Translations under genes and position numbers: made by a program
The notes under the pieces: generated by a model
Told to the model about the DNA's origin: nothing
The model's database searches: none
What the model saw: the letters and a program-made list of their open reading frames with translations, nothing else
Part shown: piece after piece, positions 3,647 through 61,900 of the stretch
Numbering within the stretch: the stretch's first letter is position 1
How the letters are laid out: every line of letters begins with the position of its first letter
From: Nannocystis bainbridge
Lineage (GTDB): Bacteria; Myxococcota_A; Polyangia; Nannocystales; Nannocystaceae
Assembly (NCBI RefSeq): GCF_028368995.1
Contig: NZ_JAQNDL010000001.1
Location: 736,001-800,000, forward strand
Direction of reading: 5' to 3'
DNA length: 64,000 bases

Positions 3647-3745
3647 GGGCATGTCCGACGAGACATGTCGTAGGGGACAGGAGACCGCCGACTCGACATG
3701 GCCCTCAGAGCATGTCTCTCGAGACATGTCCTGCGGGACACTGGC
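3647..3745. repeat. 14-bp-phased RRRCATGYYY array (copy 1)
   Basis: Cores at 3650, 3664, 3678(CAGG), 3697, 3711, 3725, 3739(CACT); one 19-bp step; between convergent stops 3635 and 3758. Confidence 0.9.
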
Positions 3746-3757
3746 CCGCCGGCCCGC

Positions 3758-4270
3758 TCAATCCTGCCAGTAGCAATAGCCCGACTGGCACTGCATCCCG
3801 TCCGGGCAGATCTGCCCGCCCGCGCAGTAGAGGGCGCAGCCGTTGGCGCCGCTGCCGAGGATCGCCGCGCACACCGGCACGGAGGTCCCGGTCGCCGGCG
3901 GGGCGAAGCAGTCGCACACGTCGACGCAGTCGCGGATCCCACACACGCTGAGGCCGCCGCTGGTGGGCGCCAGGCACAGCAATTGGCCAGTCGCCCCGCT
4001 CTCCTGCCATTCGCAGCCGGACAGGTCGCCGGGCTGACACTGCCCCCAATCCCCGATCGCGTGGGCGGCACAGCCGTCGTCGACCGTGGTGTTCTGCCCG
4101 GCCGTGCTCGTGGTGCCCGTGGTCGTCAGCTCGGCGCTCGTGTCCGTGGCCGTCGTCGTCGTCGTCGTCGTGCTCGTCCCGGCCGCCGTGTCGGTGGTCC
4201 CCCCGATCTGGCCCTGACAGGCGAACGACAGCGAGAGCAGGAGCGTGGCGGCGCGGCGCGAGGCGAGCAT
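3758..4270 (-). CDS. Cys-rich lipoprotein with Thr-rich linker
   Basis: MLASRRAATLLLSLSFAC lipobox, Thr-rich linker, Cys-rich C-terminus; start trimmed from ORF 3758..4708. Confidence 0.75.
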   Translation of the reverse strand: MLASRRAATLLLSLSFACQGQIGGTTDTAAGTSTTTTTTTATDTSAELTTTGTTSTAGQNTTVDDGCAAHAIGDWGQCQPGDLSGCEWQESGATGQLLCLAPTSGGLSVCGIRDCVDVCDCFAPPATGTSVPVCAAILGSGANGCALYCAGGQICPDGMQCQSGYCYWQD

Positions 4271-4475
4271 CGCCGCGATCCTACCCGGACTCGCCGCCGC
4301 CGACGCCGGACCCGCCACCGACCGCGAAGCGCCCGTGCTCGCCGCGCGCCGGCCCCCTGTCGCCGCGATCACACGCCCCGCGAACGACCGTACGCGCCCG
4401 CAGACCGCCCGCCTCGCGCGCGATCGCCCGTAGCCGCCCGCCCGCGCGCCGGTGGAGCCGCGGCGCCCGTCGCCC

Positions 4476-4841
4476 ATGACTGCGCCGGTGAACCACTCCG
4501 CCCGCACCCTCGCCCTCCTCCTCGCCCTCGCGGCCCCCGAGCGCGCGCGCGCCGGCGACGACGAGGACGACGGGTACCTGGCCGGCAACAACCACGGCCG
4601 CATCGACCTCATCCACCTCGACAGCGCCGTCCAGGGCCGCGGCCCGTGCGTGCAGATGAAGCCGTCGATCCCCGGCAAGTCGGCGTGGGCCTGCCTGTGG
4701 CGCAACACCCCCCTCTACGTCGAGCTGCGCGAGCTGCTGCAGGCCGCCTTCATCACCGGCAAGCGCTGCATCGTCTACTGGAGCGGCGTCGACCCCCGGG
4801 GCCACAAGACCATCGACCGCGTCGAGTGCTGGCGCACCTGA
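4476..4841 (+). CDS. Small secreted hypothetical protein
   Basis: Signal-like LALLLALAAPERARA, four Cys, GC3-rich codons. Confidence 0.6.
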   Translation: MTAPVNHSARTLALLLALAAPERARAGDDEDDGYLAGNNHGRIDLIHLDSAVQGRGPCVQMKPSIPGKSAWACLWRNTPLYVELRELLQAAFITGKRCIVYWSGVDPRGHKTIDRVECWRT

Positions 4842-4866
4842 GACGGCGCGACCTGGCAGGCCTTTC

Positions 4867-4890
4867 GGACATGACCATGAGACCATGCTT
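4867..4890. repeat. 14-bp-phased CATG array (copy 2, two units)
   Basis: GGACATGACC-ATGA-GACCATGCTT; cores at 4870 and 4884, just 3' of the stop at 4841. Confidence 0.55.
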
Positions 4891-4904
4891 CAAACGCTGT
4901 GTAC

Positions 4905-5076: not shown

Positions 5077-5100
5077 CTCGCAAGCAGAGGTCGCTAGGGA

Positions 5101-5412: not shown

Positions 5413-5471
5413 CAGACGGCGCTGCGCGTCGCGCTGGCTCGGGAAACTCGCGGGAACTAGCACGCCCACGG

Positions 5472-7093: not shown

Positions 7094-7116
7094 GCCGGCT
7101 CGCGGGGAGGCGCCGA

Positions 7117-7182
7117 TCACATGCCCTCGGAGACATGCCCGTTCGAACATGCTCCAATCGACATGTCCGATACGACATGTCC
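7117..7182. repeat. 14-bp-phased RRRCATGYYY array (copy 3)
   Basis: CATG at 7120, 7134, 7148, 7162, 7176; just 3' of the stop at 7093. Confidence 0.92.
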
Positions 7183-7485: not shown

Positions 7486-9297
7486 ATGTCCCAAGCAAGC
7501 TCCGCCCCGTCGCATCCCCCGCGTTATGACATCGTGATCGGCGGGGGCGGCCTCGCCGGTCAGGCCCTCGCCCGTCAGCTCCGCCGCGAGGTCCCCGAGG
7601 CCACCGTCGCCGTCGTCGAGCGCCAGCGCCGGCCGCTGCCCGTCGCCGCCCACAAGGTCGGCGAGTCGTCGGTCGAGCTGTCCTCGCACTACTTCAGCGT
7701 CATCCTCGGCCTCGACGAGTACCTGCGGGCCAAGCACTACCTCAAGAACGGCCTGCGCTTCTACCCCGGCGGCGGCCACACCCACGCGCTCGAGGACCGC
7801 ACCGAGATCGGCCCGCCCGAGCGGGCCACGGTGCCCTCCTTCCAGCTCGATCGCGGCCGCCTCGAACAGGACCTTCGGGACATGAACGAAGAGGCAGGCG
7901 TCACCTTGATCGAGGGCTGCGTCGTCAGGGACGTCACCCTCGCCGAGGACGACGGCGACCACCTCGTCCACGTCGAGGCCCACGGCGGCGGCGAGCCGCG
8001 GACCTTGCGGGCCGGGTGGTTCGTCGACGCCACCGGTCGCCGCGGCCTGCTGCGGGCCAAGCTCGGCCTCACCCGCCCGAGCGGCCACCTCGCCAACGCC
8101 GCCTGGTGGCGCGTCGCCGGCCGCGTCGACGTCGCCGACCTCGTGCCCGCCAGCGCGACCACCTGGCACGGGCGCGACCCCGAGCACATCCGCTGGTACT
8201 CGACCGTCCACTTCATGGGCCCCGGCTACTGGCTCTGGTACATCCCGCTGGCCCCGGGCGACGACGGCCAGGCCCACACCTCGATCGGCATCGTCGTCCA
8301 CGACGAGCTGCACCCGTTCGACACCATCCGCACCCGCGAGCGCTCGCTCGCCTGGGTCGAGAAGCACGAGCCCCTCTGCTTCGCCCAGATCAAGGACCTG
8401 CCGATGGTCGATTTCCTGACCCTCAAGCACTACAGCCACGCGACCGAGCGCATGTACTCGCCGCAGCGCTGGTCGCTGATCGGCGACGCCGGGGCCTTCA
8501 CCGACCCCTTCTATTCGCCGGGCTCCGACTTCATCGCCCTCGCCGCCAGCTTCACCGTCGAGATCGTCAAGGCCCGGCTGCGCGGCGGCGACTTCGCCGA
8601 GGCCGCCGAGCGCTTCAATCGCCTCTACCTGCTGTTCTTCGACACCACCTGCGAGCTCTACCGCAAGGCCGCCCCCGTCTACGGCAGCCCGCGCGTGCTG
8701 CCGGCCAAGGTCTACTGGGACGACTTCGTCTACTGGTCGTTCGTCTGCCAGTACTTCTTCCGCGGCCTCTACAAGCTGCCGGGCGACCAGCAGGCGCGCT
8801 TCGAGCAGCTCGGCCTCGAGTTCGCCGCCCTGCAGTTCCGCGCCCAGAAGCTGCTGAGCGAGTGGGCTCGCCGCGCCGACAACACCCCGCGGCCCGTCAG
8901 CGTCGACCTGCCCGTCATCCCCTCGATGCTCGCCACCCTCTACCTCGACCTCGTGCGCGACATGAGCCCCGACGAGGTCTTCGCGTACATGCAAGACAAG
9001 CTGGTCCAGGCCGGCGAGATCCTCGGCGAGCTGGCCCTGCGCGCCCTCGCCGACCTCGCCCCCGGCGCGCGCGACGAGCTGACCCGCGCCGTCGACCTCC
9101 CGAGCTGGCCCCGCCGCCCCCCCGCCGACCGCATCGCCAACGAGGCCGAAGTCGGCGGCAAACGCCGCCGCGCCCTCCTCCCGGTCATCCGCGACATGGA
9201 GCGCACCCTCGGCCGCCTCACCGGTGACCACGACGCCGCCACCCTCGAGGCCCTGGTCGCCCACGCCTTCGCCCCGCCGGCGCAGGCCGCAGGCTGA
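7486..9297 (+). CDS. Flavin-dependent halogenase family protein
   Basis: GGGLAG FAD motif, HKVGES, FVDATGR, WLWYIP (WxWxIP halogenase motif), GDAGAFTDPFYSPG. Confidence 0.85.
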   Translation: MSQASSAPSHPPRYDIVIGGGGLAGQALARQLRREVPEATVAVVERQRRPLPVAAHKVGESSVELSSHYFSVILGLDEYLRAKHYLKNGLRFYPGGGHTHALEDRTEIGPPERATVPSFQLDRGRLEQDLRDMNEEAGVTLIEGCVVRDVTLAEDDGDHLVHVEAHGGGEPRTLRAGWFVDATGRRGLLRAKLGLTRPSGHLANAAWWRVAGRVDVADLVPASATTWHGRDPEHIRWYSTVHFMGPGYWLWYIPLAPGDDGQAHTSIGIVVHDELHPFDTIRTRERSLAWVEKHEPLCFAQIKDLPMVDFLTLKHYSHATERMYSPQRWSLIGDAGAFTDPFYSPGSDFIALAASFTVEIVKARLRGGDFAEAAERFNRLYLLFFDTTCELYRKAAPVYGSPRVLPAKVYWDDFVYWSFVCQYFFRGLYKLPGDQQARFEQLGLEFAALQFRAQKLLSEWARRADNTPRPVSVDLPVIPSMLATLYLDLVRDMSPDEVFAYMQDKLVQAGEILGELALRALADLAPGARDELTRAVDLPSWPRRPPADRIANEAEVGGKRRRALLPVIRDMERTLGRLTGDHDAATLEALVAHAFAPPAQAAG

Positions 9298-9388
9298 CTT
9301 GTCCAAAGGGACATGTCTCGATGGACATGTCCTTCACCACAGGTCCATCAGGACATGCCCCCATGTGCATGTCCCCAGAGACACGACC
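9295..9388. repeat. 14-bp-phased RRRCATGYYY array (copy 4)
   Basis: Cores at 9298(CTTG), 9312, 9326, 9340(CAGG), 9354, 9368, 9382(CACG); fills the gap between convergent stops 9297 and 9391. Confidence 0.92.
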
Positions 9389-13348: not shown

Positions 13349-13349
13349 G

Positions 13350-15911
<2,562 letters not shown>

Positions 15912-15925: not shown

Positions 15926-16033
15926 CAGCATATCCCCGCGGACATGCCCGTTCGCGCATGCCTGAACGAGCATGTGCAAACGCGCATGTGCGAACGAGCA
16001 TGTCCGAACGCGCATGTCCGAACGGACATGCTG
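15926..16033. repeat. 14-bp-phased RRRCATGYYY array (copy 5, eight units)
   Basis: Cores at 15929(CATA), 15943, 15957, 15971, 15985, 15999, 16013, 16027; just 3' of the Lon stop. Confidence 0.95.
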
Positions 16034-16469: not shown

Positions 16470-17471
16470 ATGTGGGCTCTGGACAATCGCACCGGCTACG
16501 CCGCGGCCCGCAACTGGGCGCGCGACAAGGACGGGGTGCACTGGTGGATCGTCGCCGTCAAGGCCACCTTCGACGTGAGCCCGCAGGGCCGCGCCGTGCT
16601 CGCCGACGTGCAGCCCGAGCCCGTGCTCGCCCCCGAGTATTTCGGCGATCCGGGCGCCTCCAGCCTGCGTCACGACTCCGACCTGCTCGCGCCCAAGCCC
16701 GGCACCGACGTGCTGGCGATCGCCCACGCCCACGCCCCCGGCGGCCGCCCGGCGACCGCCGTCCCCGTGACCCTGCGCGTCGGCGCCCTGACCAAGCAAT
16801 TGCGGGTCCACGGCGAGCGCACCTATGATTCGCTGGGCGTCGGCCTGTCCGCGCCGGAGCCATTCTCGACAGCCCCCATTCGCTACGAATACGCCTTTGG
16901 CGGCTTCGACACCGCCGACCCCGACCCGGCCCGCCAGCGCATGGACGAGCGCAACCCGGTCGGTCGCGGCTTCGTGCGCCGCTCGCTGACCCGCGCCGGC
17001 CAGCTCGCGCACGCCATCGAATATCCCGACGGCGATCCCGCCGACGCAGGCCCGGCCGGCTTCGGCCCCGTCGATCCGTCCTGGTCGCCGCGCCGCCAGC
17101 TCGCCGGCACCTACGACGCCCGCTGGGAGCAGACCCGGCGCCCGCTGCTGCCCGCCGACTACGACCCTGAATTCGCCATGAGCGCCCCCGCCGACCAGCG
17201 CGCCGCCGGCCCCGTCCTCGGCGAGCGCGTCGAGCTGCACAACATGACCCCCGAGGGCATTCTCCGCGTCGAGGTCCCCCGCGTCGCCCTCGCCTTCACC
17301 ACCCGCTTCGGCGCGCGCCGCCAGGAGCAGCCCTCGCGGCTGACCGCCCTGATCCTCGAGCCCGAGGAGCGCCGCCTGTCGCTGGTGTGGCAGAGCTGCC
17401 TGCGCGTCGCGGCGCCCGACGCCGACTACCTCGACGTCACGGAGATCCGCGAACACCGAGGTGCCGCATGA
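16470..17471 (+). CDS. DUF2169 family T6SS effector adaptor
   Basis: MWALDNRTGYAA..W.RDKDG...VAVKATFD, PKPGTDVL, NPVGRGF, PAGFGP, AGTYD..W, APADQ. Confidence 0.9.
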   Translation: MWALDNRTGYAAARNWARDKDGVHWWIVAVKATFDVSPQGRAVLADVQPEPVLAPEYFGDPGASSLRHDSDLLAPKPGTDVLAIAHAHAPGGRPATAVPVTLRVGALTKQLRVHGERTYDSLGVGLSAPEPFSTAPIRYEYAFGGFDTADPDPARQRMDERNPVGRGFVRRSLTRAGQLAHAIEYPDGDPADAGPAGFGPVDPSWSPRRQLAGTYDARWEQTRRPLLPADYDPEFAMSAPADQRAAGPVLGERVELHNMTPEGILRVEVPRVALAFTTRFGARRQEQPSRLTALILEPEERRLSLVWQSCLRVAAPDADYLDVTEIREHRGAA

Positions 17472-17742
17472 ACGCGCCGATCGCCGACGGCGAGGCCCCG
17501 TCACTGCCCGCTCCGAGATCCCGCATGAACGCGCCGCCCAGCCCTGACAGCGCGCTCGGGTCACTCGCGCCGCGAACACCAAGGTGCCGCATGTACGCGC
17601 CGCCCAGCCCTGACCGCGCGCTACCGTCACGCCTCGCCCTCGCCCCGCGAACACCGAGGTGCCGCGTGAACGCGCCGCCCAGCCCTGACCGCGCGGTCCC
17701 GTCACGCCTCGCCCTCGCCCCGCGAGGTGCCGCGTGAACGCG
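17448..17742 (+). repeat. Five imperfect copies of the gene junction GAGGTGCCGC(A/G)TGAACGCGC; encodes an 89-aa repeat ORF (17468..17737)
   Basis: ATG/GTG of each copy at 17468, 17525, 17591, 17666, 17734 (steps 57/66/75/68). Confidence 0.85.
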
Positions 17743-18783
17743 CGGCTCGAAGTCGTCGCCATCGGCGCGCGCACCCCCGTCGGTCACGACGCGATCAGCA
17801 GCGCCGCCGCCGTACGGGCCGGCATCGCCCGCTGCAGCGAATATCCGTTCGCCACCCCCGACGGCGCCCCCCTGGTCGCCGCCGCCGACTCGCGCATCGA
17901 CCCGCTGCTCGAGGGCAATCCCCGGCTCGTACCGCTGCTCGCCAGCGCGCTCGCCGAGGTCGCCCGCACCCTCGCCCGCGGCGCCCCGCATGCCGGCCCG
18001 CAGCACCTCCTGCTCGCCCTCCCCGAGGCTCGCCCCGGCTTCGACAAGCGCGAGGCCGCCGAGCTCCTCGGCCTCGCTCTGGCCTGCCTGCGACGCCTGG
18101 GCGTGGCTGCCGAAGCTCGGGTCGCCGGCCACGGCCACGCCGGCGCCGTCCAGGCCGTCGAGCACGCCGCCCGCATCGTCGCCGCCGATCCCGACGCCCT
18201 GTGCTGGATCGCCGGCGTCGACAGCTGGCTGCACGCCGACACTCTGTTGTGGCTGGAGGACCAGCGCCGCTGCGCCCAGCCCGGTGTGCGCAGCGGCTTC
18301 ATCCCCGGCGAGGCCGCCGGCTGCCTCGCCCTGGCCAGCCCCGAGCTGCGCCGGCGCCTGCGCCTGCCGGCCCTCGCCCTCGTGCGCGGCGCCCGGACTG
18401 CCCGCGAGGCCCACCTGCGCACCAGCGACACCGGCACCTTCGGCGAGGGCATGCGCGACGCCGTCGTCGGCGCCGCCAGTGACCTGCGCCTGCCCGACGA
18501 GCGCATCGACACCCTCTACAACGACATCAACGGCGAGCGCTACCGCAGCGAGGAATGGGGCTTCGTGGCCCTGCGCACCGCCGAGCTGTGGAAATCGCTG
18601 CAATACGACGCCCCCGCCGATCGCTGGGGCGACGTGGGCGCGGCGACGGTGCCCCTCGCCGCCATCCTCGGGGTGCAATCTTTCCGCCGCAGCTACGCCT
18701 CCGGCCCGCGGGTCATGATCACCGCCGGCTCCGACGGCGGCCTCCGCGGCGCCCTGCTCCTCCAGCGCCCCGCGGGCCCCTGA
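17734..18783 (+). CDS. Beta-ketoacyl-synthase-like T6SS cassette protein (PRK06147-like)
   Basis: IGARTPVG...AAVRAGI, AGVDSWL, GFIPGEAAG, DINGERYRSEEWG, WGDVGAA; located between DUF2169 and PAAR-like genes. Confidence 0.85.
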   Translation: MNARLEVVAIGARTPVGHDAISSAAAVRAGIARCSEYPFATPDGAPLVAAADSRIDPLLEGNPRLVPLLASALAEVARTLARGAPHAGPQHLLLALPEARPGFDKREAAELLGLALACLRRLGVAAEARVAGHGHAGAVQAVEHAARIVAADPDALCWIAGVDSWLHADTLLWLEDQRRCAQPGVRSGFIPGEAAGCLALASPELRRRLRLPALALVRGARTAREAHLRTSDTGTFGEGMRDAVVGAASDLRLPDERIDTLYNDINGERYRSEEWGFVALRTAELWKSLQYDAPADRWGDVGAATVPLAAILGVQSFRRSYASGPRVMITAGSDGGLRGALLLQRPAGP

Positions 18784-18800
18784 GACGCCTCGAGGTCCCG

Positions 18801-19976
18801 ATGTCCAGCATCTCCGTCAACCCGCCCAAGACGCCCGTCACCACCGGCAGCAACGGCATCGCCGCCGCCACCGTGCCCAACGTGTGCAAGATGCCGGGCC
18901 CGCCCGCCCCGTTCGTCCCGACCCCGCTGCCCAACATCGCCAAGTCCGGCAACTCGCCCAAGGATTTTTCAAAGAAGGTCACCTTCGACGGCTGCAAGGT
19001 CGCCATCAAGGGCGCGACCTTCAAGTCCATCGGCGACCTCGCCAGCAAGGCCACCGGCGGCGGCATCGTCTCGGCGAACGTCGAGGGCCCGGCCCGCTTC
19101 GTCGGCCCCGGCTCGCTCGACGTCAAGGTCGAGGGCAAGAACGTCCACCTGCTCAGCGACCCGATGCTCAACAACTGCGGCCCGAGCGGCAGCCCGCCGA
19201 ACGCCGCCACGCTGCTCGGCCTGGTCCAACCGACCGGCCTCGTCGCCCTCGTCGGCGACGAACAATGCGCCCTCTGCCACAAGTCCCACGGCGACGCGGC
19301 GCGGCTCGAGGAGACCGCCGACACCAGGGCCGACGCCAGCACCTTCCAGGCCGCGGCCACGGCGGCGCGGGCGAAGAAGATCAAGGTGCGCGGGACGATG
19401 CTGGGCGTCGTCCGCTGCAAGGACGATTTCGTCTACGCCGCCAACTCGGGCGGACAGATCCCCGAGCTTCACCAGGAACTCTCGAAAGAGTGGCACACCC
19501 CCGTTCCGGAGCGGCTGTTCGCGTTCGAGTCGCTCGTCGGCGACGAACGACGCGAGCAGTTCCAGGACATGTGGAAGAACCTTGGCGAGGCGAGTCGCGC
19601 CTGGAAAGCCCGCAAGGAGCTCAAGGACGCGACGAGGACGGAGCAGCAAAAAGAGAAGGACGCGGGCGAACCCTTCTATCCGCCAGGCTCCTGCGCCGCT
19701 CAGAAAGCCGTCGTGCTGGCACTGATCCACGGTGCCCGACCCGTGGGTCTCACCGAACGCTGGTCCAGTCCCACCGGCCCGAAGTCTCGCGTGCTGGTCC
19801 ACTTCCGTTCCAGGCCAGGCGGCAGGCGAAAGCTCGGTTACTTCGGCGGGGAAGATGCCGTACCGCCCTGTGGCACCTGTCAGGTGATGCTGACGATGTT
19901 GCTTTGCCCGGACGAACGCGCTCCCAAGTGCGATCACCAATCACCCGGTTCGCAGGTCTGTCGATGCACCCCGTAG
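18801..19976 (+). CDS. PAAR-like DUF4150 protein with C-terminal deaminase-like toxin domain
   Basis: PNVCKMPGPPAPFVPTPLPN, GSLDVKVEGKNV..L.D.M.NN; C-terminal YAANSG, PPGSCAAQK, VPPCGTC. Confidence 0.8.
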   Translation: MSSISVNPPKTPVTTGSNGIAAATVPNVCKMPGPPAPFVPTPLPNIAKSGNSPKDFSKKVTFDGCKVAIKGATFKSIGDLASKATGGGIVSANVEGPARFVGPGSLDVKVEGKNVHLLSDPMLNNCGPSGSPPNAATLLGLVQPTGLVALVGDEQCALCHKSHGDAARLEETADTRADASTFQAAATAARAKKIKVRGTMLGVVRCKDDFVYAANSGGQIPELHQELSKEWHTPVPERLFAFESLVGDERREQFQDMWKNLGEASRAWKARKELKDATRTEQQKEKDAGEPFYPPGSCAAQKAVVLALIHGARPVGLTERWSSPTGPKSRVLVHFRSRPGGRRKLGYFGGEDAVPPCGTCQVMLTMLLCPDERAPKCDHQSPGSQVCRCTP

Positions 19977-20704
19977 AAGATGAAATGGAACGCTTCCTCG
20001 CCCGGCTCATGCCTGGCATCGATCTCGGGTGGGAGGGAGCTTCGACGGCGGAGATCCGCGAGATCGAGGCCCTCGCCGGGCGTCCGCTCCCCGACTTCTA
20101 TCGCTGGTTCCTCGCGCGGATGGGGCGCAACATGGGAGCGCTCGGCTACGCCAGCGTCGACTTCTCCGCCGCCCGCATCCTCGCTTGCTATCGAGAAGAG
20201 CTCCGCAGTCCGGATCCTCGTTACCTCCTGATCGGTTATGAAGACGATCCGGTGGTCCCCATGCATACCTGGTACGATCTCGCTCGCCCGATGCGGGGTG
20301 ACGCGCTCGTGCTGAGTCGGGGCATCGGAGACCCGCTCATACAGCTCGACTTCGAGACCTTCCGTGAGCAACTCGCCTGGAAAGCGATGCTGAACTTCCG
20401 GCTCGACGCCTTGCCAGCATCATGCAAGGGCAGCTTCAAATCCCACCGGGCGGACGTGCGAGCCCGCCTCGATCAGGCAATGAACGCCTTGAACTTCGAG
20501 CAGCCCGTCCCCTCCGGAGATTTCTGCGGAATTTTCGATCGCACAGACGCCGCCATGATCTGCAGCGTCACCCCGAGAGAAGAACCGGAGAAGATCCTGT
20601 TCTTCCGGCTCGCCGCCGCGAATGCAGGTACCATGCGCCGGATCCTCGGCGTCATCGCCAGGGAGACGGACCTCGAGGTCGTGATCGATCCTGGACAACC
20701 GTGA
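19964..20704 (+). CDS. SMI1/KNR4 (SUKH) family immunity protein
   Basis: GASTAEIREIEALAGRPLPDFYRWFLARMG motif; overlaps the toxin stop; alternative start at 19985. Confidence 0.85.
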   Translation: MHPVEDEMERFLARLMPGIDLGWEGASTAEIREIEALAGRPLPDFYRWFLARMGRNMGALGYASVDFSAARILACYREELRSPDPRYLLIGYEDDPVVPMHTWYDLARPMRGDALVLSRGIGDPLIQLDFETFREQLAWKAMLNFRLDALPASCKGSFKSHRADVRARLDQAMNALNFEQPVPSGDFCGIFDRTDAAMICSVTPREEPEKILFFRLAAANAGTMRRILGVIARETDLEVVIDPGQP

Positions 20705-22039: not shown

Positions 22040-22263
22040 GCGGCCCAGGGTACGAGCGGCGCTCGCCGCAGCAACGCGACCACCGTGCGCGTGCCCGGGA
22101 GCCCGCAGAACCCGGCGCGCCTCGCCGCCGGCCTCACAGGCGCACGCAGCGTCGCCGCTGACCTCGGCGGGAGCCCCTCGCCGGCGCCCCCGCCGTCCTT
22201 CGCCCGCCCGAGCGCCGCTCCCGCCGGCGACGCTATCTCCTGGCGATCATCATGTGCCCTTCA

Positions 22264-22329
22264 GAACATGTCTCAAAGCACATGCCCCGAAGCCCATGCC
22301 CCGATAGACATGCCCTCACGGGCATGTCC
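22264..22329. repeat. 14-bp-phased RRRCATGYYY array (copy 6)
   Basis: CATG at 22267, 22281, 22295, 22309, 22323; immediately 3' of the P450 stop at 22336. Confidence 0.92.
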
Positions 22330-23751: not shown

Positions 23752-23803
23752 GCCCGTGCTCTTTCGAACATGTCCTGGAGGACATGTACCGAAGATCACG
23801 CTG
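23752..23803. repeat. 14-bp-phased CATG array (copy 7)
   Basis: Cores at 23755(CGTG), 23769, 23783, 23797(CACG); in a divergent promoter region. Confidence 0.75.
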
Positions 23804-26339: not shown

Positions 26340-27445
26340 ACGATCCGTCAGGCCATCGGCCCGGGCGGGACCCCGCCGCGGAGCCACCGGACGCCCGCAT
26401 CGCCGCGCTGCTGCGGGCCGCCGCCGCGCTGGCGCCCGACGCCGCCGCGTTCGCCAGCGACCCGCGGGCCGCCGCCGAGACCGCCCTGGCCGTCGCCGCC
26501 GCCGAGCTCGCGGCCCTGCGCGCCTATCGCGAGCGGACCGAGCGGCAGATGGAGGAGCTCTTCAACACCATCACCGCCTACGCGGCGCTCGAGTACGACC
26601 GCCGCGCCGTGGTCCTCGACGACAACGACGAGCTCATCAACGCGATGGCGATCGGCCTCAACATGATGGGCGAGGAGCTGTCGCACACGATGAAGGCGCT
26701 GGTGCGCGCGCGCGACGAGGCGCTGGCCGCCAGCCGGGCCAAGAGCGCCTTCCTCGCCAACATCAGCCACGAGCTGCGCACGCCGCTGAACGCGATCATC
26801 GGCTACGCCGAGATCATCCGCGAGGACCTGGTCGAGACCGGCCAGGACGCGCTGACCCTCGACGTCGACCGCCTGCAGGTCGCCTCGCGCCACCTGCTCA
26901 ACCTCATCCAGGACGTCCTCGACCTCGCGCGCATCGAGGCCGGCCGCGTCGACGTGCGGCTCGAGACGACCGACCTGCGCACGCTGCTGCAGGAGCTGCA
27001 GACCACCCTGGCGCCCTCGGTCAAGGACGCCGGCAACGTGCTGCACGCGCGCGTGCAGGTCAGCCGCCCGCAGATCCTCACCGACCCGCTGCGGCTGCAG
27101 CAGATCCTGCTCAACATCCTCGGCAACGCCAACAAGTTCACCGTCGGCGGCGACATCACCCTCTCGGCCGGCGACCACGTCGAGCACGGCCGCGATTTCG
27201 TCGACATCACCGTCGCCGACACCGGCATCGGCATCCCCGCCGACAAGCTCGAGACCATCTTCGACGCCTTCACCCAGGTCGACGAGACCTCGACCCGCCG
27301 CTTCGGCGGCACCGGCCTCGGATTGGCCATCAGCCGCCGCCTGTGCGACCTGCTCGGCGGCTCGATCGTCGTCACCAGCGAGCTGCGCCGCGGCTCGACC
27401 TTCCGCGTGCGCCTGCCGGTCGACGGCCCCGAGCGGCACCGCTGA
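26336..27445 (+). CDS. Cytoplasmic sensor histidine kinase
   Basis: AKSAFLANISHELRTPLN, QILLNILGNANKFT, DTGIGI, GGTGLGL; GTGA overlap with the upstream gene. Confidence 0.95.
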   Translation: MNDPSGHRPGRDPAAEPPDARIAALLRAAAALAPDAAAFASDPRAAAETALAVAAAELAALRAYRERTERQMEELFNTITAYAALEYDRRAVVLDDNDELINAMAIGLNMMGEELSHTMKALVRARDEALAASRAKSAFLANISHELRTPLNAIIGYAEIIREDLVETGQDALTLDVDRLQVASRHLLNLIQDVLDLARIEAGRVDVRLETTDLRTLLQELQTTLAPSVKDAGNVLHARVQVSRPQILTDPLRLQQILLNILGNANKFTVGGDITLSAGDHVEHGRDFVDITVADTGIGIPADKLETIFDAFTQVDETSTRRFGGTGLGLAISRRLCDLLGGSIVVTSELRRGSTFRVRLPVDGPERHR

Positions 27446-27494
27446 CCTGCTCGCCGGGACATGTCCTCGCAGACATGTCCCGAGGCACAGCTCA
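27443..27494. repeat. 14-bp-phased CATG array (copy 8)
   Basis: Cores at 27446(CCTG), 27460, 27474, 27488(CAGC); fills the gap between convergent stops. Confidence 0.85.
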
Positions 27495-34247: not shown

Positions 34248-34271
34248 TGACATGTCTCTTGGGACATGCGA
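34248..34271. repeat. 14-bp-phased CATG array (copy 9, two units)
   Basis: TGACATGTCT-CTTG-GGACATGCGA; cores at 34251 and 34265. Confidence 0.7.
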
Positions 34272-35525: not shown

Positions 35526-35591
35526 TCGCATGTCCCGAAGGCCATGCCCTAAGAGACATGCCCGTTAGAACATGCCCTCTTGAACATGCCC
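35526..35591. repeat. 14-bp-phased RRRCATGYYY array (copy 10)
   Basis: CATG at 35529, 35543, 35557, 35571, 35585; just 3' of the TolC-family stop at 35604. Confidence 0.93.
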
Positions 35592-35603
35592 CGATGGCCA
35601 GCC

Positions 35604-39469: not shown

Positions 39470-40261
39470 TCAGGAGCGGGCAGAGATCTTGTATTCGGTG
39501 GAGTTGCGTTCGCCGCGGCGCGCGACCTGGCCGGAAGCGACCAGGCGATGGAGGGCGATGCGGACCTGGTTGTCGGAGCCGCCGACGTGGGCGCGCAGCT
39601 GCGACGCGCCGATCCAGCCGGTCGTCTGCTGCAGCAGATTCATCACCGCCGCGTCGTAATGCGCGCGGCCCTCGAGCGTGCGCGCCGAGACGACCGGCGG
39701 TCGCCCGCGCTTGCTCGGCGGCGGCAGGCTGACGGCGTCGTCCTCCTCCTCTTCCGTGACGTCGTATTGCGCCCCGGGGATCCACGAGTAACGCGCGGGC
39801 TTGCCGTCGCTGCGGACCTTGCCGGCCTTGATCAGCTCGGTGACGGCGCGGTACATCGTGCTCGGGCTGCCGCCGAGCTTGGCCCGCAGTTCACCTGATG
39901 TCAGCCCGGTCCCTGCGGCCTGCAGCATCTCGACGATCGAGGCCACGTAGTCGCTGCTGGTGGCGCTCGGCGACCGCCCGGACCGCACTGGCGCAGACGC
40001 TTCCCGGGTCGCCCGTCCTCCACCGCGCTTGACCGGCCTCCCGCCTGGCTTGCTCGCGTCGCTCGGCGGCGCGGCGCTCTGGCTGAGCTCGGCGAGCTTG
40101 AGGTTGTCGAGGCCGCGTCCGAGAGGGCTCGTCAAGATCTCGCGCAGGTCGCCGAGGGTGAGCTCCGAAAACCTTTGCCGCAGCACTTGTGCCAAAAGGA
40201 TGGCCTGGTGCTCCGCGACGCTGCGCTGCAGATCGGACCGGAGGCGGTGAAGGATGCTCAT
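39470..40261 (-). CDS. Putative DNA-binding protein with two winged-helix domains
   Basis: Two repeats of Y...(I/V)..(M/L)LQ....(L/I)...(E/Q)LRA..GGS......A...L...G.V...G....Y. Confidence 0.75.
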   Translation of the reverse strand: MSILHRLRSDLQRSVAEHQAILLAQVLRQRFSELTLGDLREILTSPLGRGLDNLKLAELSQSAAPPSDASKPGGRPVKRGGGRATREASAPVRSGRSPSATSSDYVASIVEMLQAAGTGLTSGELRAKLGGSPSTMYRAVTELIKAGKVRSDGKPARYSWIPGAQYDVTEEEEDDAVSLPPPSKRGRPPVVSARTLEGRAHYDAAVMNLLQQTTGWIGASQLRAHVGGSDNQVRIALHRLVASGQVARRGERNSTEYKISARS

Positions 40262-40986: not shown

Positions 40987-41010
40987 CGCTCTGTCCACGA
41001 GGACATGTCC
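40987..41010. repeat. 14-bp-phased CATG element (copy 11, degenerate two units)
   Basis: GCTCTGTCC-ACGA-GGACATGTCC; perfect palindrome at 41001-41010. Confidence 0.5.
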
Positions 41011-41112
41011 TCCCCGTCAGCCGCCCGTTCTCGCGCGGCTCGCCGGCGATCTCGCGGCGGTCGCCGGGCCCTTCCCTGCCCGGCCGGCCCCGCGTTACCG
41101 TGGCCGCCCCGC

Positions 41113-46547: not shown

Positions 46548-47555
46548 ATGCTCCGCCGCGCCGTCCTCGGCCTCGCCTCGCTGCTCGCCTGCGACTCTGC
46601 CGGCGTCGCCCCTCCGGCCGCCCCGCAGCCGGGCGCCGCCGCGACTGCCCCGAAGGACATGCCGAAACAGCCAGGTCCTCAAGGACATGCTCCCGGGGAC
46701 ATGCCCCCCGAGACAGCCTCACCCGCCGCCGCCGCCGCGCCGGTCCCTCCGCTGCCCCCGCTGGCGCGCTACGACTGGCTGACCGAGGCCGGCGGCGAGC
46801 CGCCCGCGCGCGAGCAGCTGGCCGCCGCGATCGCTCCGCCGGCCGGCGCGCGGCGGGTCGCGCTGGCGGACGGCAGCTTCGGCGCCTGGCTGCGCGGCCT
46901 GCCGCTGCTGCCGCAGGGCGCCCCGGTGCTGCTCTACAGCGGCGCCACCAAGCCCAACCAGGCCGCGCACTTCCGGGTCGTCGACCTCGACGTCGGCGAC
47001 CGCGATCTCCAGCAGTGCGCCGACGCCGTCATGCGCCTGCGCGTCGAGTACCAGTGGGCCGCCGACCAGCGGCGCGCGATCGCCTTCAAGCTGACCGACG
47101 GCACCGCCTGGACCTTCGCCGCCTACCTCGGCGGGACCCGCCTCAAGCTGGTCGGCAAGAAGGCCGAGCTCCAGCCCGGCAGCCCGCGCCCGGCCACCCG
47201 CGAGACCCTGCGCGGCTACCTGCGCACGCTCTTCACCTACGCCGGCACCGCCTCGATCGCCGCCGAGCTGCCGCGCCGCGAGCTCGCCGGGCTCACCGCC
47301 GGCGACGTGCTGGTCCAGGGCGGCTTCCCGGGGCACGCCGTCCTCGTGCTCGACCTCGCCGAGGACGATCAGGGCCGCCGCTACTTCCTGCTCGGCCAGA
47401 GCTACATGCCGGCCCAGCAGTTCCACGTGCTCAACAACCCGAGCGAGCCCGACCTCTCGCCGTGGTACCGCGCCGACGCGCTGACGACCGGCGCGATGAC
47501 CCCCGAGTGGGGCCCGTTCACGGACCGCGACCTGCGCCGCTTCCGCGACGGCTGA
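46548..47555 (+). CDS. DUF4846 family lipoprotein
   Basis: LLAC lipobox; GSFGAWLRGLPL, DLQQCADAVMRL, YAGTAS, GGFPGHAV, QSYMPAQ. Confidence 0.85.
   Translation: MLRRAVLGLASLLACDSAGVAPPAAPQPGAAATAPKDMPKQPGPQGHAPGDMPPETASPAAAAAPVPPLPPLARYDWLTEAGGEPPAREQLAAAIAPPAGARRVALADGSFGAWLRGLPLLPQGAPVLLYSGATKPNQAAHFRVVDLDVGDRDLQQCADAVMRLRVEYQWAADQRRAIAFKLTDGTAWTFAAYLGGTRLKLVGKKAELQPGSPRPATRETLRGYLRTLFTYAGTASIAAELPRRELAGLTAGDVLVQGGFPGHAVLVLDLAEDDQGRRYFLLGQSYMPAQQFHVLNNPSEPDLSPWYRADALTTGAMTPEWGPFTDRDLRRFRDG
46641..46720. repeat. 14-bp-phased CATG array inside a CDS (copy 12)
   Basis: Cores at 46644(ACTG), 46658, 46672(CAGG), 46686, 46700, 46714(CAGC); encodes ATAPKDMPKQPGPQGHAPGDMPPETAS. Confidence 0.85.
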
Positions 47556-47557: not shown

Positions 47558-47651
47558 GCGCCTGTCCTCACGGACATGCCGCAACGGACATGCCGCAACG
47601 GACATGCCGTCTGGGACATGCTCTCACGGACATGTCGCAAGCGACATGTCC
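47558..47651. repeat. 14-bp-phased RRRCATGYYY array (copy 13)
   Basis: Cores at 47561(CCTG), 47575, 47589, 47603, 47617, 47631, 47645; between convergent stops 47555 and 47667. Confidence 0.95.
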
Positions 47652-48015: not shown

Positions 48016-49032
48016 TTATTGCAGCCGCGCGTGTACGACATCGGGCCCCTCCACCTCCAACGCCACGAGCGTCGCCCCGGGCACCTGCACCGCGGCGAGT
48101 CGCTCCTGGAGATCGGCCGCGCTGAGCGGGCCGTCGATCTTCAAGATCACCGAGCCGTCCCCGCCGACCCCGGCCACCTTGACCGCCTGGGCGCCGATCA
48201 CCGACTCCGCGATCGCGCGCTCGACCCGCCGCACGCGTGCGGCCGGCCACGGGGTGGTGAGGCGCAGGCGCAGGCCGCTGGCGGTCTGCACGGACATGCT
48301 CGAAGAGACCTGATTCGTGGCGCTCTCGAGGGCCGCCGCCGCCGCCGCCGCCGCGTCGGGCGCGAAGCCGGTGGCGGTCGCCGAGGCGGCGCCGTCGCGA
48401 CCCTCGCCGCGCAGGACCACGGCCGCCTCGGCCACGACCCCGCGGGGATACGCGACCGCGCCGAGCTCGCGACAGCGGAGCTCGAGCGTGCGGGCCGAGC
48501 CGGCGGAGATCGTGCCGCCACGGCCGTCGCGGAGCAGACCGGCCTTGATCCACCGCTGGGCGACGGCTTCGGCGGCGCCCTCGGCACAGCCCTCGCCGCG
48601 CACGGCCACCAGCGCCGGGGCCTCCTTCGTCACGGGCGCGGCCGGCAGGGCCAGCGCCTTGGACAGCCGCCCGGTGTCGATCTCGACCGACACCACGGCG
48701 GTCGCGGTCGCCCCGTCGTCGCCCTGCTGCAACACCCGATAGGCCCGCGTCCACACCGCGGCGGCGTCCATGATCTTCTTGCGCTGGACCGCGTCGGCCG
48801 GGCCGACCTGCTCGAGCGCCGCCTCGAGCGCCGCCCGCCGCGCCCGCTCGAGCGCCTGGCCGCGAGCCTTGAGGCTGTCGACCTTCTCGCTGATGGGCGC
48901 GTGTCCGGTGCCCGCGAAGGGGGCGGCCCAGGCCGGCAAACCGCCCAGGACGGCCGCCAAGACGATCGCGGCAGCGAGGCCCCGGCCGACACGGCCGCGA
49001 CCGAAGGTCTCGCCTCGCGGATGTCTCGGCAT
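48016..49032 (-). CDS. Secreted hypothetical protein
   Basis: Hydrophobic signal, then G.G.API...ARGQALERARRAALE (FlgT-N-like); start uncertain. Confidence 0.6.
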   Translation of the reverse strand: MPRHPRGETFGRGRVGRGLAAAIVLAAVLGGLPAWAAPFAGTGHAPISEKVDSLKARGQALERARRAALEAALEQVGPADAVQRKKIMDAAAVWTRAYRVLQQGDDGATATAVVSVEIDTGRLSKALALPAAPVTKEAPALVAVRGEGCAEGAAEAVAQRWIKAGLLRDGRGGTISAGSARTLELRCRELGAVAYPRGVVAEAAVVLRGEGRDGAASATATGFAPDAAAAAAAALESATNQVSSSMSVQTASGLRLRLTTPWPAARVRRVERAIAESVIGAQAVKVAGVGGDGSVILKIDGPLSAADLQERLAAVQVPGATLVALEVEGPDVVHARLQ

Positions 49033-52082: not shown

Positions 52083-52176
52083 GCGCCTGGCCTCTGGGAC
52101 ATGTCCAGGAAGGCATGTCCAGAGGGACATGGCGCGACGGACATGCCCAGGACAGCATGTCCCCGAGGACATCCAC
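52083..52176. repeat. 14-bp-phased RRRCATGYYY array (copy 14)
   Basis: Cores at 52086(CCTG), 52100, 52114, 52128, 52142, 52156, 52170(CATC); starts just after the stop at 52080. Confidence 0.93.
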
Positions 52177-54222: not shown

Positions 54223-54288
54223 CAGCATGCCTCTCGGGACATGTCCACGAGGCCAGGGCCCTCAGGACATGCCCGCATGGACATGTCC
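54223..54288. repeat. 14-bp-phased RRRCATGYYY array (copy 15)
   Basis: Cores at 54226, 54240, 54254(CAGG), 54268, 54282; just 3' of the gloA stop. Confidence 0.92.
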
Positions 54289-54299
54289 CTTCGGACTGC

Positions 54300-54691
<392 letters not shown>

Positions 54692-55662: not shown

Positions 55663-56343
55663 ATGAAGCGCAGCGAAAAGGCCCTCAAAATTCAGGCCGT
55701 CCTCGACCGCCTCTACCCGCAGCCCGCGGTCCCGCTGCTCCACGGCGATCCGTTCACCTTGCTGGTCGCGGTGTTGTTGTCGGCGCAGACCACCGACGCG
55801 CGGGTCAACCTCGTCACGCCGGCGCTGTTCCAGCGCGCGCCGACGCCCGCGGCGATGGCCGAGCTGTCCGAGGCCGAGATCCTCGGGTTCATCCGCTCTT
55901 GCGGCCTCGCCCCGGCCAAGGCCAAGAACATCCGCCGGCTGTCGCAGCTGCTGCTCGAGCGCCACGGGGGACATGTCCCGAAGGACATGGCCGCGCTCGA
56001 GGACCTGCCCGGCGTCGGCCACAAGACGGCCAGCGTCGTCATGATCCAGGCGTTCGGCGTGCCGGCCTTCCCGGTCGACACCCACATCCACCGGCTGGCC
56101 GCCCGCTGGGGCCTGTCCGACGGCACCACCGTCGAGAAGACCGAGGCCGACCTCAAGGCTCTGTGGCCGCAGGACGCGTGGGCCAAGCTCCACCTGCAGA
56201 TCATCTACTTCGGCCGCGAGCACTGCCCGGCCCGCGGCCACGACCCCGAGGTGTGCCCGATCTGCGCGTGGGCCGGCGTCAAGACCCGCCTCGCCGCCGA
56301 GGCCCGCGCCCGCGCGGCCGCCCGCCTCTCCGCGTCCGGGTGA
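55663..56343 (+). CDS. nth: Endonuclease III
   Basis: LLSAQTTD, HhH LPGVGHKTA, VDTHIHR, GREHCPAR...CPIC. Confidence 0.95.
   Translation: MKRSEKALKIQAVLDRLYPQPAVPLLHGDPFTLLVAVLLSAQTTDARVNLVTPALFQRAPTPAAMAELSEAEILGFIRSCGLAPAKAKNIRRLSQLLLERHGGHVPKDMAALEDLPGVGHKTASVVMIQAFGVPAFPVDTHIHRLAARWGLSDGTTVEKTEADLKALWPQDAWAKLHLQIIYFGREHCPARGHDPEVCPICAWAGVKTRLAAEARARAAARLSASG
55969..55992. repeat. Two-unit 14-bp CATG element inside nth (copy 16)
   Basis: GGACATGTCC-CGAA-GGACATGGCC, encoding GHVPKDMA. Confidence 0.65.
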
Positions 56344-56423: not shown

Positions 56424-56502
56424 GGGCATGTCCTTCGGGGCATGTCCGATGCACCATGCTCCTTCAGACATGCCCTTTCAAGCATGTCCTCAAGACCTGT
56501 CG
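56424..56502. repeat. 14-bp-phased RRRCATGYYY array (copy 17)
   Basis: CATG at 56427, 56441, 56455, 56469, 56483; between convergent genes. Confidence 0.93.
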
Positions 56503-58762: not shown

Positions 58763-58914
58763 CACCTGCCCTTCCAAAAAAACTCTTCCGCCAGCCGTAT
58801 CACAGACCTACCACCCGCGCAGGCGGGGAAACCCTCTGCGCGCGGCTTCGCTGGAGACCTCGGCATCTCCCCGCCCCGGCGTTTGCGGTCCCGTGCTAAG
58901 GTGGCTGCGCAGGC

Positions 58915-61900
58915 GTGGTCGACCTCGAGGCGGACAGACTGCGCGCCTTGATGCGCGCCGCGGTGTTCAAGCAGCCGCACCAGCCGGTGCTCCTCGGCAA
59001 CTTCGAGATCATCAAGGTGCTCGGATCGGGCGCGATGGGCATCGTGTATGAGGCCTTCGACCCCCGTCGCGGCGAGAGCGTCGCGCTCAAGACGTTGCGG
59101 GCCCCGAGCGCGCGCGCACTGGCGCTCTTCAAGCGCGAGTTCCGGGCGCTGTCGCGGCTGTCGCACCCGAACCTGGTCGAGCTGCACAAGATGTATCGCG
59201 ACCACGACCAGTACTTCTTCACGATGGAGCTCATCCGCGGCTCGCCGCTGCTGACGTACCTGTGGGGCGTCGAGGCCGCTCCCGACGCGCCGACGGCCAC
59301 TCCCGTCACCGACTTCGCCCGACTGCGCGCGGCCTTCGCCCAGCTCGTCGACGGCGTGTTCGCGCTCCACCAGAGCCACAAGCTGCACCGCGACATCAAG
59401 CCGACCAACGTCATGGTCAGCCCCGAAGGCCGCGTCGTCCTCATGGACTTCGGCTTCGTCGGCGAGGAGTCCGTCGGCACGCTCGAGTCGACGGCCGGCA
59501 GCCTGGTGGTCGGCACGCCGGCGTACATGGCCCCCGAGCAGGCGGTCGGCGGCGCGCGCACGCCCGCGAGCGACTGGTACAGCGTCGGCGCCACCCTCTA
59601 CATGGCCCTCACCGGCCGCGTGCCCTACTCCGGGGAGAACCTGGCGCGCATGATGGAGCGCAAGCAGGCGTCGGCGCCCCCGCCGCCGCGCACGCTCGTG
59701 GCCGGCATCCCCGACGAGCTCGACGTCGTCTGCGTGCGCCTGCTCCAACCTGACCCGAAGGTCAGGCCCGGCGCGTCCGAGCTGATGGCGCTGTTCCACA
59801 GCGACCGCGGCCACCTGCAGCGGGTCCAGGCGGCCGCGTACGTGTCGCCGGCCGCCACCCACGTCGGCGCGCGCAGCTTCGTCGGCCGCACCGCCCAGGT
59901 GCGCGCGATCCGGCTGGCCTTCGACGCCGTCGACCGCGCGGCCGCGCCCGTCCCCCCGCCCGAGGCAGTGCCCGCGGTGGTGCTCGTGCACGGCCGCGCC
60001 GGCCTCGGCAAGAGCGCGCTGATCCGCCACGTCACCGACGGCCTGCGCCAGCGCGCGACCCTGCTGCGCGCCCGCTGTTACGATCGCGACACCGTCCCGT
60101 ACAAGGCGCTCGACAGCCTGGTCGACGCCCTGGCCCGCCAGCTGCGCCAGCGCGACGAGGCCGAGGTCGCTACCGTGCTGCCGCCCGAGATCGACTCGCT
60201 GGTCGCGCTGTTCCCGGTGCTCCACCAGGCCCCGGCCGTGGCCGCCGTCACACCTGTCCCTTCGGCCATGCCCACGCGGCGCGATCTCCGGGCCGCGCTG
60301 CGCCCGGACGCCCCGGCCTTCCGCGCGCTGCGGCGGCTGCTCGTCGGCCTCGGCGGCGGCCGCCCGCTGGTGCTGTGGATCGACGACCTGCAGTGGGGCG
60401 ACGCCGACAGCGTGCGCGTGCTGGCCGAGCTGCTGCGCCCGCCCGGGGCCCCGCGCGGCCTGCTGATCGCCAGCTACCGCAGCGAGGACGGCGACAGCCC
60501 GGCGCTGCGGGCCCTGGATGTCCTGAGGGACATGGTCGAACAGGCAGGTTCTTCGATGCAGGTGCTCGAGGTGCCGCCGCTGTCACCCGACGAGACCGAC
60601 GCGCTGGCCGAGATCCTGCTCGGGCCCGACACCCCGCCGCCGCGGCTGCGCCGGGTCGCCGCCGAGGCCGGGGGCAGCCCGCAGCTGCTTCACGAGCTGG
60701 CGCGCTTCGTCGCCCACGGGGCCGGCAGCGCGCCCGAGGTCACGGTCGACGAGCTGATCGAGATCCGGATCTCGCGCCTGTCCGCGCCGCAGCGGCGCCT
60801 GGTCGAGGTGCTGGCGGTGGCCGGGCGCCCGCTGGCCCAGGCGGTCGCGTTCACGGTCGCCGGGGTCGCCCCCGCGGCCGCCAACGCCGGGCTGGCCGAC
60901 CTCCACCAGCTGCAGGCCGCGGGCCTGGTCCGCAGCTTCACCGCCGCCGGCTCCGACCTGCTCGGCGAGCAGGGCGAGCTCGTGCTCGACGTCCAGCACG
61001 AGCGCACCCGCGACGCGGTGCTGATCCGCCTCGACGGTCCGGCCCTGCGCGAGCTCCACGGCCGCCTCGCCGCCGCGCTCGAGCGCGACCCGCAGACCGA
61101 CCCGTTCGCCCTCATCGAGCACCTGCGCGCCGCCGGCGACACCGCCCGCGCGCTCGCCCTGGCCCGCCGGGCCGCCGGCTTCTACCGCGAGGCCGACGAT
61201 TTCCTGCGCGCGGCCGCCTTCCTCCGGGTCGCCCGCGACCTCGCCCCGCCCGGGGCCGCACCGGCGCTCGCGCGCGAGCTCGGCGATGCGCTCGCGCGCG
61301 CCGGCCACAGCCGCGAGTCCGCCGAGGCCTACCTCTCGGCCCGCAACGGCAGCGACCCGGCGGGCGACCTCACCCTCGTCGGCGCCGCCGCGGCCCAGTT
61401 CATCACCGCCGGCCACCTCACCCGCGGTCAGGAGATCCTGAGCGCCGCCCTCGTCTCGGCCGGGCTGTCCGCCGGCGACGCGTCGGTGCGCGACAAGCTC
61501 GGCGCGCTGTGGCGGCGCGGCCAGAAGATGGTCCGCGGCCTCGACTTCACCGCCCGCGCCGAGGCCGACGTCGACCGCATGGACCTGGCGCGGGTCGACC
61601 TGTGCTTCGCCGCCGCGCTGTCGACCATGGCCGTCGACCCCAGCGCCGCCGCCGACGCCCAGGCGCGCCACCTGCTGCTGGCCCTGCGGGCCGGCGAACC
61701 GCGTCGGGTGGCGCGCGCCTTCGCGCTCGAGGCCTGCCTGCTGGCGCCCGGAGGCGCGCGCGCGCGCGGCCAGCTCGACCCGCTGCTCACCTCCGCGCGC
61801 GCCCTCGCCCGCTCGACCGGCGCCACCGGCATCGCCGACCTGTGCGACCTGGTCGACCTGCTGGCCGAGACCGCCGGCGGCTCGCCCACGCGCGCGCTGG

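Follow-up and report, generated by a model that had tools for sequence, protein, structure and literature searches.

The window analysed here, a stretch of 64,000 nucleotides from Nannocystis bainbridge (C1:736001-800000 of the 11.05-Mb, five-contig genome G000, completeness 90.5%), carries many rows of a short palindromic DNA element with a 14-bp step, most of them at gene ends. A first-pass annotation had listed 18 such loci and described the unit as a 10-bp palindrome centred on CATG. All 18 do hold phased sites (17 were recovered by an array scan and the one at 40987 by a site scan), but the dyad sits at the 4-nt spacer rather than at CATG, and the true unit is a 20-bp palindrome, R-S-M-TGTCC-N4-GGACA-K-S-Y. 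CATG is the junction of two such sites that share 6 bp, the shared hexamer ACATGT fitting both. About 12,000 real sites, in about 6,400 loci, are spread genome-wide. The window holds 88 sites of at least 10 bits, including 13 single or paired loci inside genes beyond those first listed. Positions are given below, with gene contexts taken from our own gene caller (8,348 genes in G000).

3635..3743: two runs of three overlapping sites (3635-3682 and 3696-3743), convergent intergenic, beginning at a stop codon
4869..4888: one site, convergent intergenic
7119..7180: run of 4, tandem intergenic
7866..7899: two sites 14 bp apart, within a flavin-dependent halogenase-like gene
9297..9386: run of 6, occupying a convergent intergenic region from stop to stop
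13784-13817: pair of sites inside a gene
15928..16031: run of 7, 12 bp past the stop of a LonB-like protease gene
22252..22327: run of 5, past the stop of a cytochrome P450 gene (minus strand)
23754..23801: run of 3, divergent genes on both sides
27445..27492: run of 3, occupying a whole convergent intergenic region
34250..34269: one strong site, tandem intergenic
35528..35603: run of 5, past the stop of an outer-membrane efflux gene (minus strand)
40989..41022: two sites, on the upstream side of a TrkA-N domain gene
46643..46718: run of 5, in or just ahead of the 5' part of a DUF4846 gene (start codon uncertain)
47560..47649: run of 6, convergent; sites or arrays here in 5 of 5 close congeners, with diverged spacers
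48280..48313: pair of sites in coding sequence, kept in 5 of 5 close congeners
52085..52174: run of 6, past the stop of a Ser/Thr kinase gene; an array at the same place in 4 of 5 close congeners
54225..54300: run of 5, past the stop of a glyoxalase-family gene (minus strand)
55971..55990: one site, inside an HhH-GPD (endonuclease III-like) gene
56426..56487: run of 4, between convergent genes
60516..60549: pair of sites inside a kinase/AAA gene, kept in 9 of 9 aligned congeners
867..886, and starting at 1904, 11097, 14863, 30991, 32118, 35032, 36909, 59748 and 60252: single sites in coding sequence

The bias towards 3' ends seen in the first pass holds genome-wide. In the window we counted seven convergent loci rather than six; by our gene calls, the loci at 23752 and 40987 lie between divergent genes and that at 46641 inside an open reading frame. 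At 55971..55990, several of the encoded amino acids differ from those of three distant congeners that are without the site.

CATG-to-CATG distances in the window are 14 bp (45 cases), 28 bp (28), 42 bp (24) and 56 bp (12), with 0-5 cases at any other distance up to 100 bp. The genome-wide histogram peaks at the same four distances, with 3736, 2073, 1586 and 751 cases against about 60-480 elsewhere; the first three of these peaks had been predicted. A profile scan of the genome with a 14-bp unit model found 3,301 arrays covering 157 kb, while the same model at 12 control periods (10-25 bp) found only 15-244, and a 13-bp-period control pattern matched 0-19 times per genome. The longest array, of 22 units, follows a small conserved gene (G000 C3:1237883-1238190). 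Facing half-sites of the form TGTCC-N4-GGACA number 1,987, compared with 16 at a 3-bp gap and 5 at a 5-bp gap. Of these cores, 888 have no CATG on either side, and lone sites, which read as the full 20-bp palindrome, mostly have CCTG or CAGG in its place. Units at array edges keep the inward half and lose the outward half (1,474 edges). Overlap by 6 bp with a common ACATGT thus explains both the CATG core and the CCTG/CAGG variants at the edges.

The refined model of the site contains 18.4 bits, and the flanks outside it are near background. With this model we found 13,539 sites of at least 10 bits, against 522-1,343 in controls with other gaps, and 10,508 of at least 14 bits, against 74-241. 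About a third of all sites are solitary (4,732 isolated sites), and overall density is about one per 0.9 kb. Of 2,267 sites, 647 have AA/TT and 534 have GA/TC as the central dinucleotide. Only 35 of 7,834 two-unit words are common to more than one locus.

Arrays are concentrated at gene ends throughout the genome, at 3.24 per kb of convergent intergenic DNA, 1.19 of tandem and 0.45 of divergent, in agreement with the enrichment expected from the first pass. Counted as sites, density is about 0.4 per kb in genes, about 2 before starts and 11-14 at +10 to +60 after stops; it reaches 15-20 per kb at 15-75 bp past stops without a competing promoter, and is about 3 per kb in noncoding DNA distant from gene ends. 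Convergent regions of at least 40 bp contain a site in 687 of 959 cases. The 391 runs of at least five sites comprise 234 in convergent regions, 122 in tandem regions, 27 in genes and 8 in divergent regions. Sites are present on all five contigs, each stretch of 200 kb holding 58-353 of them, and they also occur next to the inferred origin and terminus; they are restricted to neither, with a mild rise near the inferred terminus. U-tailed terminators are rare in this genome, following 49 of 4,096 gene ends.

The sites are maintained by selection inside genes. Exact cores number 508 in high-confidence genes and occur in all three frames, compared with 9-23 in three synonymous shuffles. In a comparison with the congener G005 (299 kb aligned), 11 of 114 A/T third-codon bases in site cores had changed against a background of 71.5%, a contrast somewhat inflated by the choice of sites in G000; 101 of 107 aligned coding sites were kept. 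For intergenic sites (110 of 404 aligned gap-free), the invariant T and G change in 3% and the spacers in about 50%. Among congeners, orthologous arrays are found at the same gene ends with varying unit number. Selection on the units, as the first pass had argued, is thus borne out by conservation of the coding sites, and its case against simple slippage also holds, since adjacent units are hardly more alike than the family profile predicts.

The motif is carried by three genera of one family, the Nannocystaceae, which probably form one clade. A strict 20-bp pattern matched 322-2,271 times in 8 genomes of Nannocystis, 57-157 times in 5 genomes of a second genus (g2) and 50-666 times in 7 genomes of a third (g4), and only 0-8 times in 41 genomes of 14 other genera. 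Three further Nannocystis congeners gave 71, 893 and 2,076 matches, and 250 further genomes of the phylum 0-10. A 16-bp pattern matched 0-7 times in 141 genomes of the class outside the family, and a three-unit pattern search of public genomes returned mostly Nannocystis records. Relatives form a gradient, from genomes with 0-8 sites, through genomes with 50-900 that are mostly solitary, to genomes with about 2,000 strict matches and long rows. Pairs at 14 bp relative to sites were 169/457 in G005, 18/114 in G009, 2/40 in G192 and 3/79 in G036, where the stretches were picked at known hits. This pattern suggests that rows may be a late elaboration of solitary sites. In an outgroup genus (g16), all 4 genomes inspected at one locus have a strong site upstream of an operon that looks Rsb-like by eye. 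Two Rhodobacteraceae genomes (G064 and G065; loci L094, L095, L099 and L100) have 25 and 43 matches of a similar CATG pair within near-perfect inverted repeats flanked by GTAG, which probably belong to a separate family of the repetitive extragenic palindrome (REP) type.

How the sites vary makes it very probable that they are read as double-stranded DNA, bound by a protein. Neither arrays nor lone sites show covariation between mirror positions (mutual information at most 0.018). Mismatches on the transcript strand include slightly more G-T than A-C (885 versus 712), and the two kinds number 464 and 200 for leading-strand genes and 290 and 446 for lagging-strand genes; the G-T excess also appears when convergent regions are read along the leading strand. 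GC skew served to infer the replichores, and a cluster of parS sites backs the origin. The G-T bias therefore follows the replication strand and not the transcript, and is mutational. Together with the absent covariation, this argues for double-stranded DNA rather than a REP hairpin, and it backs the dimeric reader of double-stranded DNA that the first-pass annotation had proposed. Selection for a hairpin or cruciform was rejected.

The 14-bp step follows largely from the site itself. A neighbour at 14 bp becomes 77 to 620 times more likely through self-overlap of the single-site profile, the factor varying with the profile used; the ratio actually observed is 100-295. We counted 4,695 pairs at 14 bp, against 1,868 expected from the flanks of isolated sites, which understate the expected pairing, and the residual excess is at most 2.5-fold. 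Spacings of 16, 18, 19, 20, 23 and 24 bp are strongly depleted (at 16 bp, 4 seen against 186 expected), spacings of 21-22 bp are tolerated and 36 bp is raised. The avoided spacings are those that would be expected for a bulky dimer on the helix. In a small simulation (24 chains per setting), 14-bp rows arose under additive selection with no cooperativity, and none arose when overlapping sites excluded one another; overlapping sites must therefore each count, and strong cooperativity is not needed. The earlier proposal of selection on geometry through cooperative polymerisation thus survives in part. The step itself is mostly self-overlap and appears without cooperativity, which leaves the avoided spacings and an excess of at most 2.5-fold at 14 bp. 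That one dimer per 14 bp is physically possible is indicated by the packing of a PadR crystal, in which four dimers occupy two 28-bp duplexes (PMC5728393).

On balance we lean, by a little, towards a sequence-directed nucleoid or 3'-boundary site, read by an abundant homodimer for which a Fis-like protein is the leading candidate; granted that the element is a protein site on double-stranded DNA, the nucleoid or 3'-boundary role would itself be likely. An abundant homodimeric protein would bind the twofold-symmetric 20-bp operator chromosome-wide. The outer 6 bp of each site resemble the half-site of a neighbour, so that adding an overlapped site at 14 bp would be the cheapest step. Dimers would fit when spaced by 14 bp, which sets them about 120 degrees from one another, or by 21-22 bp, and would clash at 16, 18-20 and 23-24 bp. 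RNA polymerase would pass lone dimers in genes, where they would organise the nucleoid, and rows of 3-8 dimers past stops would act as a boundary, slowing read-through or taking up supercoiling at the ends and meeting points of transcription units.

The candidate reader was sought among five candidate families and LexA. Stand-alone Fis-like (HTH_8) proteins of 66-82 amino acids are present in 3-14 copies in all 20 motif-bearing genomes; those of G000 include one encoded at C2:2991539-2991757 and a paralogue at C1:1320087-1320287. Among the 41 motif-free genomes, 36 have one copy, two have none, two have two and one has three, and a search of 141 genomes belonging to the other families of the class gave no member. 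Copy number correlates with sites per Mb (rho 0.50 for 23 motif genomes, in which kin are not independent). The recognition helix is nearly invariant over 62 rows, and both proteins tested exceeded the Pfam cut-off for HTH_8. A structural model has three helices, and its best Foldseek matches, all weak (best E 0.08), are Fis-type domains, Fis and NtrC4. Several G000 copies rank close to ribosomal genes on a noisy codon measure (7, 16, 46 and 65 of 8,348). At most of the 11 outgroup loci inspected, the single copy has the same neighbouring genes, and the paralogue tree, poorly resolved with 31 of 55 inner branches open, suggests independent amplification in each genus. That the Fis-like family reads the site is a tentative assignment, at somewhat less than even odds.

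Several observations count against this model. With regard to position, high-confidence genes contain 33 runs of at least four sites, which means that a row does not act as an absolute stop; sites occupy the two ends of long convergent regions only about 1.7 times as often as the middle (63 and 70 versus 39 of 168); and the presence of a site shows no link to a codon-based expression proxy. With regard to the reader, the range of families compared was narrow and the structural matches are weak. HU/IHF proteins reach at least four copies in 16 of 20 motif genomes and in 0 of 41 others, and a control that marks the same genera means that the Fis-like match may be a single clade-level coincidence. 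Motif-free genera have a single-copy Fis-like orthologue with almost the same recognition helix, in genomes with 0-8 sites. Most Fis-like paralogue promoters are without the site, and a dyad upstream of the orthologue scores 6.9 bits in G000, 12.7 and 10.3 in two g4 genomes and mostly below 5 elsewhere. This dyad shares the TG-N10-CA frame with the site, its interior differs and it is not iterated; in G000 (C2:2992032, upstream of L127:1004-1219) it lies between the Fis-like orthologue and a divergent response regulator, and the dyad recurs in several genera. As for the co-occurring DNA-binding gene that the first pass suggested looking for, the Fis-like family tracks the motif, but HU/IHF marks the same genera, and binding by either is putative.

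A different protein may read the same site, whether a winged-helix family, a clade-specific HU paralogue or another protein. This is possible, if rather less than an even prospect, and as it concerns the reader only it is compatible with the nucleoid or boundary mechanism. The geometry is one that PadR-type winged helices also use, and the spacing recurs in the padC operator (PMC5728393). At three actinobacterial loci (L091-L093), CATG triplets phased at 14 bp, likely an operator, lie between a PadR-like gene and a divergent carotenoid-oxygenase-like gene, both named by eye. PadR itself was rejected as reader, since the geometry fits but the gene is absent from G000 and present in only 4 of 11 genomes of the genus. 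A winged-helix family (A1) with 10 matches in G000 was likewise set aside because it occurs in 61 of 61 genomes of the Nannocystaceae, a range unrelated to that of the motif. One member, encoded in the window at 39470-40261 (minus strand), has two winged-helix domains; the family layout, an N-terminal helical domain, a basic linker and a C-terminal winged helix, suggests an uncharacterised family of nucleoid proteins.

The distribution of the HU paralogue follows the motif clade, a fourth copy being found only in the three motif-bearing genera (the extra HU/IHF gene of G000 is at C5:217084-217377, minus strand). However, HU-type proteins are mostly not sequence-specific, and nothing about the extra HU looks unusual; its codon score is low (rank 8,099 of 8,348). 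LexA was rejected as a single gene whose promoter has no site, and MrpC because the inner half-sites of its consensus are 2 bp further apart (PMC4320627). ParB was rejected as well: 53 of 61 genomes have a single HTH_ParB, whose distribution is unrelated to the motif, and there is a separate parS cluster of 5 sites, so that the partition-type protein envisaged in the first pass is unlikely. This cluster lies at the inferred origin (G000 C1:4343336-4343723), and parB is on C3:1147343-1147930, about 350 kb from the inferred terminus. Inspection by eye, among the matches listed, gave no candidate for an autoregulated gene beside the longest or the promoter-side arrays. Also in G000, C1:1377114-1377311 (minus strand) encodes a 65-amino-acid protein that resembles a bacterial histone by eye and has a high codon score.

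The element might instead be a mark of self DNA that spreads through biased uptake or recombination and accumulates where it is cheapest, with no role in transcription; DNA uptake sequences spread in this way, and the same has been suggested for HIP1. Such a mark would fit a site about every 0.9 kb, the enrichment and conservation of sites within genes, accompanied by amino-acid changes, and the emergence of 14-bp rows from additive selection alone in the simulation. Genes with low G+C content at third codon positions are depleted of sites (0.3 versus 1.2 per kb), and site-free gaps, often in DNA of lower G+C content, reach 26 kb. We nevertheless regard this explanation as improbable, since the 15-20 sites per kb just past stops persist where no promoter competes and far exceed the level of about 3 in distant noncoding DNA; in addition, uptake sequences are not known to be palindromic.

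A REP-like RNA element, with an 8-bp stem and 4-nt loop at each site in the 3' untranslated region that protects or ends the mRNA, had been offered as an alternative in the first pass and now seems very improbable. The 3' location is that of REPs (PMC3733652), and arrays fold far more stably than base-shuffled sequence. There is a small mirror excess in arrays of two units (0.487 versus 0.465) and four units (0.457 versus 0.425), but none in arrays of 3, 5 or 6 units. U-tailed terminators are rarer after array-bearing genes (6 of 1,245 versus 36 of 2,408, p 0.005). Against these points stand the lack of stem covariation and a wobble bias that tracks replication. Stable tetraloops are not favoured on the transcript (GNRA 132 versus 121; TTCG 81 versus CGAA 86), sites inside genes number in the thousands, and two-unit words are almost never common to different loci. 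An Rfam search of the window gave no match, and RAYT transposases, noted as missing from the window in the first pass, were not found in the 90.5%-complete genome G000 either (PF01797, 0 matches).

Least credible is a protective or modification mark, by which a methyltransferase or defence system would tag self DNA as at HIP1: genome-wide spread, clade restriction and depletion in foreign-looking DNA agree with it, but methylase sites are far shorter than this site of 20 bp and 18.4 bits, the distances between sites are irregular (coefficient of variation 1.23), a self-mark would gain nothing from rows at gene ends, and CATG is dispensable, which also disposes of the earlier suggestion of CATG or RCATGY methylation, given the 888 cores that lack a flanking CATG and the CCTG/CAGG of most lone sites.

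If the nucleoid or boundary reading is correct, a bacterial transcription-factor site has come to organise the whole chromosome, and a GC-rich genome in which U-tailed terminators are rare has another way of ending its transcription units. A bolder scenario, in our view speculative and unlikely in full, is that sequence-programmed chromatin evolved in the three Nannocystaceae genera: a family-specific Fis-like protein, whose ancestral regulon was tiny, would have been amplified in gene dosage, its operator written more than 10,000 times despite amino-acid changes, and the self-overlapping rows past stop codons would be protein-built boundaries replacing intrinsic terminators. For decades, no function has been assigned to hyper-iterated bacterial motifs such as HIP1. 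The Nannocystis motif, with its defined 20-bp site, steric spacing rules, sharp 3' position, gradient over relatives and small candidate reader, is directly testable.

Two further observations concern other features of the sequence. A cluster in the window at 16470-20704 (plus strand), with a DUF2169 gene and a gene for a PAAR-like toxin-domain protein, resembles a type VI secretion accessory locus. Identical proteins were called near the ends of C1 and C2 (for example C1:4535731 and C2:3032952), which suggests assembly overlap or duplication.

The first pass did not recognise the repeat as a described family, and we found no description of the motif in the literature searched, a body of text that lies outside most subscription journals and supplements. 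Like the site described here, HIP1 of cyanobacteria is a hyper-abundant palindrome that occurs about once or more per gene and is conserved both in genes and in the DNA between them; a nucleoid role has been proposed for it, and it has no known binding function (PMC5861425). Both are strongly over-represented and conserved in coding and noncoding DNA alike. However, HIP1 is a contiguous octamer tied to methylases, whereas the Nannocystis site is a bipartite 20-bp operator with a free centre that forms overlapping rows and peaks past stop codons. REP, BIME and REPIN elements likewise consist of short palindromes that number in the thousands and mostly follow genes or lie between convergent ones (PMC3733652; its main text, searched by term, does not mention myxobacteria), and the Nannocystis site shares with them its extragenic palindromes mainly downstream of genes. 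Unlike REPs with a RAYT, it has no near-identical copies, no hairpin covariation and no terminal tetranucleotide tag, and it is heavily represented inside genes.

Fis-type proteins are dimeric helix-turn-helix readers, and the candidate has a predicted Fis-like fold; Fis sites are highly degenerate. The sites of parS, Noc, SlmA and MatP are restricted to or excluded from the origin or terminus, whereas the Nannocystis sites are neither and have no link to ParB. Tandem repeats of constant length and variable sequence in Bacillus resemble the arrays in their fixed period, diverged units and proposed nucleoid role, but have periods of 52 or 20-21 nt and several sequence families (PMC8161180); the Nannocystis arrays consist of one palindromic site that also occurs alone, with a period that arises from self-overlap. 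Clusters of Fur sites, like the Nannocystis rows, overlap by a set number of base pairs, 3 or 6, and so occupy different faces of the helix; they number in the hundreds and are discussed at promoters (PMC2189734), whereas the Nannocystis sites are more than 10,000 high-information sites that avoid promoters and gather at gene ends. PadR operators resemble the arrays only, with CATG cores 14 bp apart and dimers tiling one per 14 bp (PMC5728393), but each of these is a single operator at a promoter, G000 has no PadR gene and most solitary Nannocystis sites are without CATG. The site thus resembles HIP1 in abundance and conservation, REPs in position and Fur or PadR operators in the geometry of overlap, but lacks a defining feature of REP, of HIP1 and of PadR operators alike.

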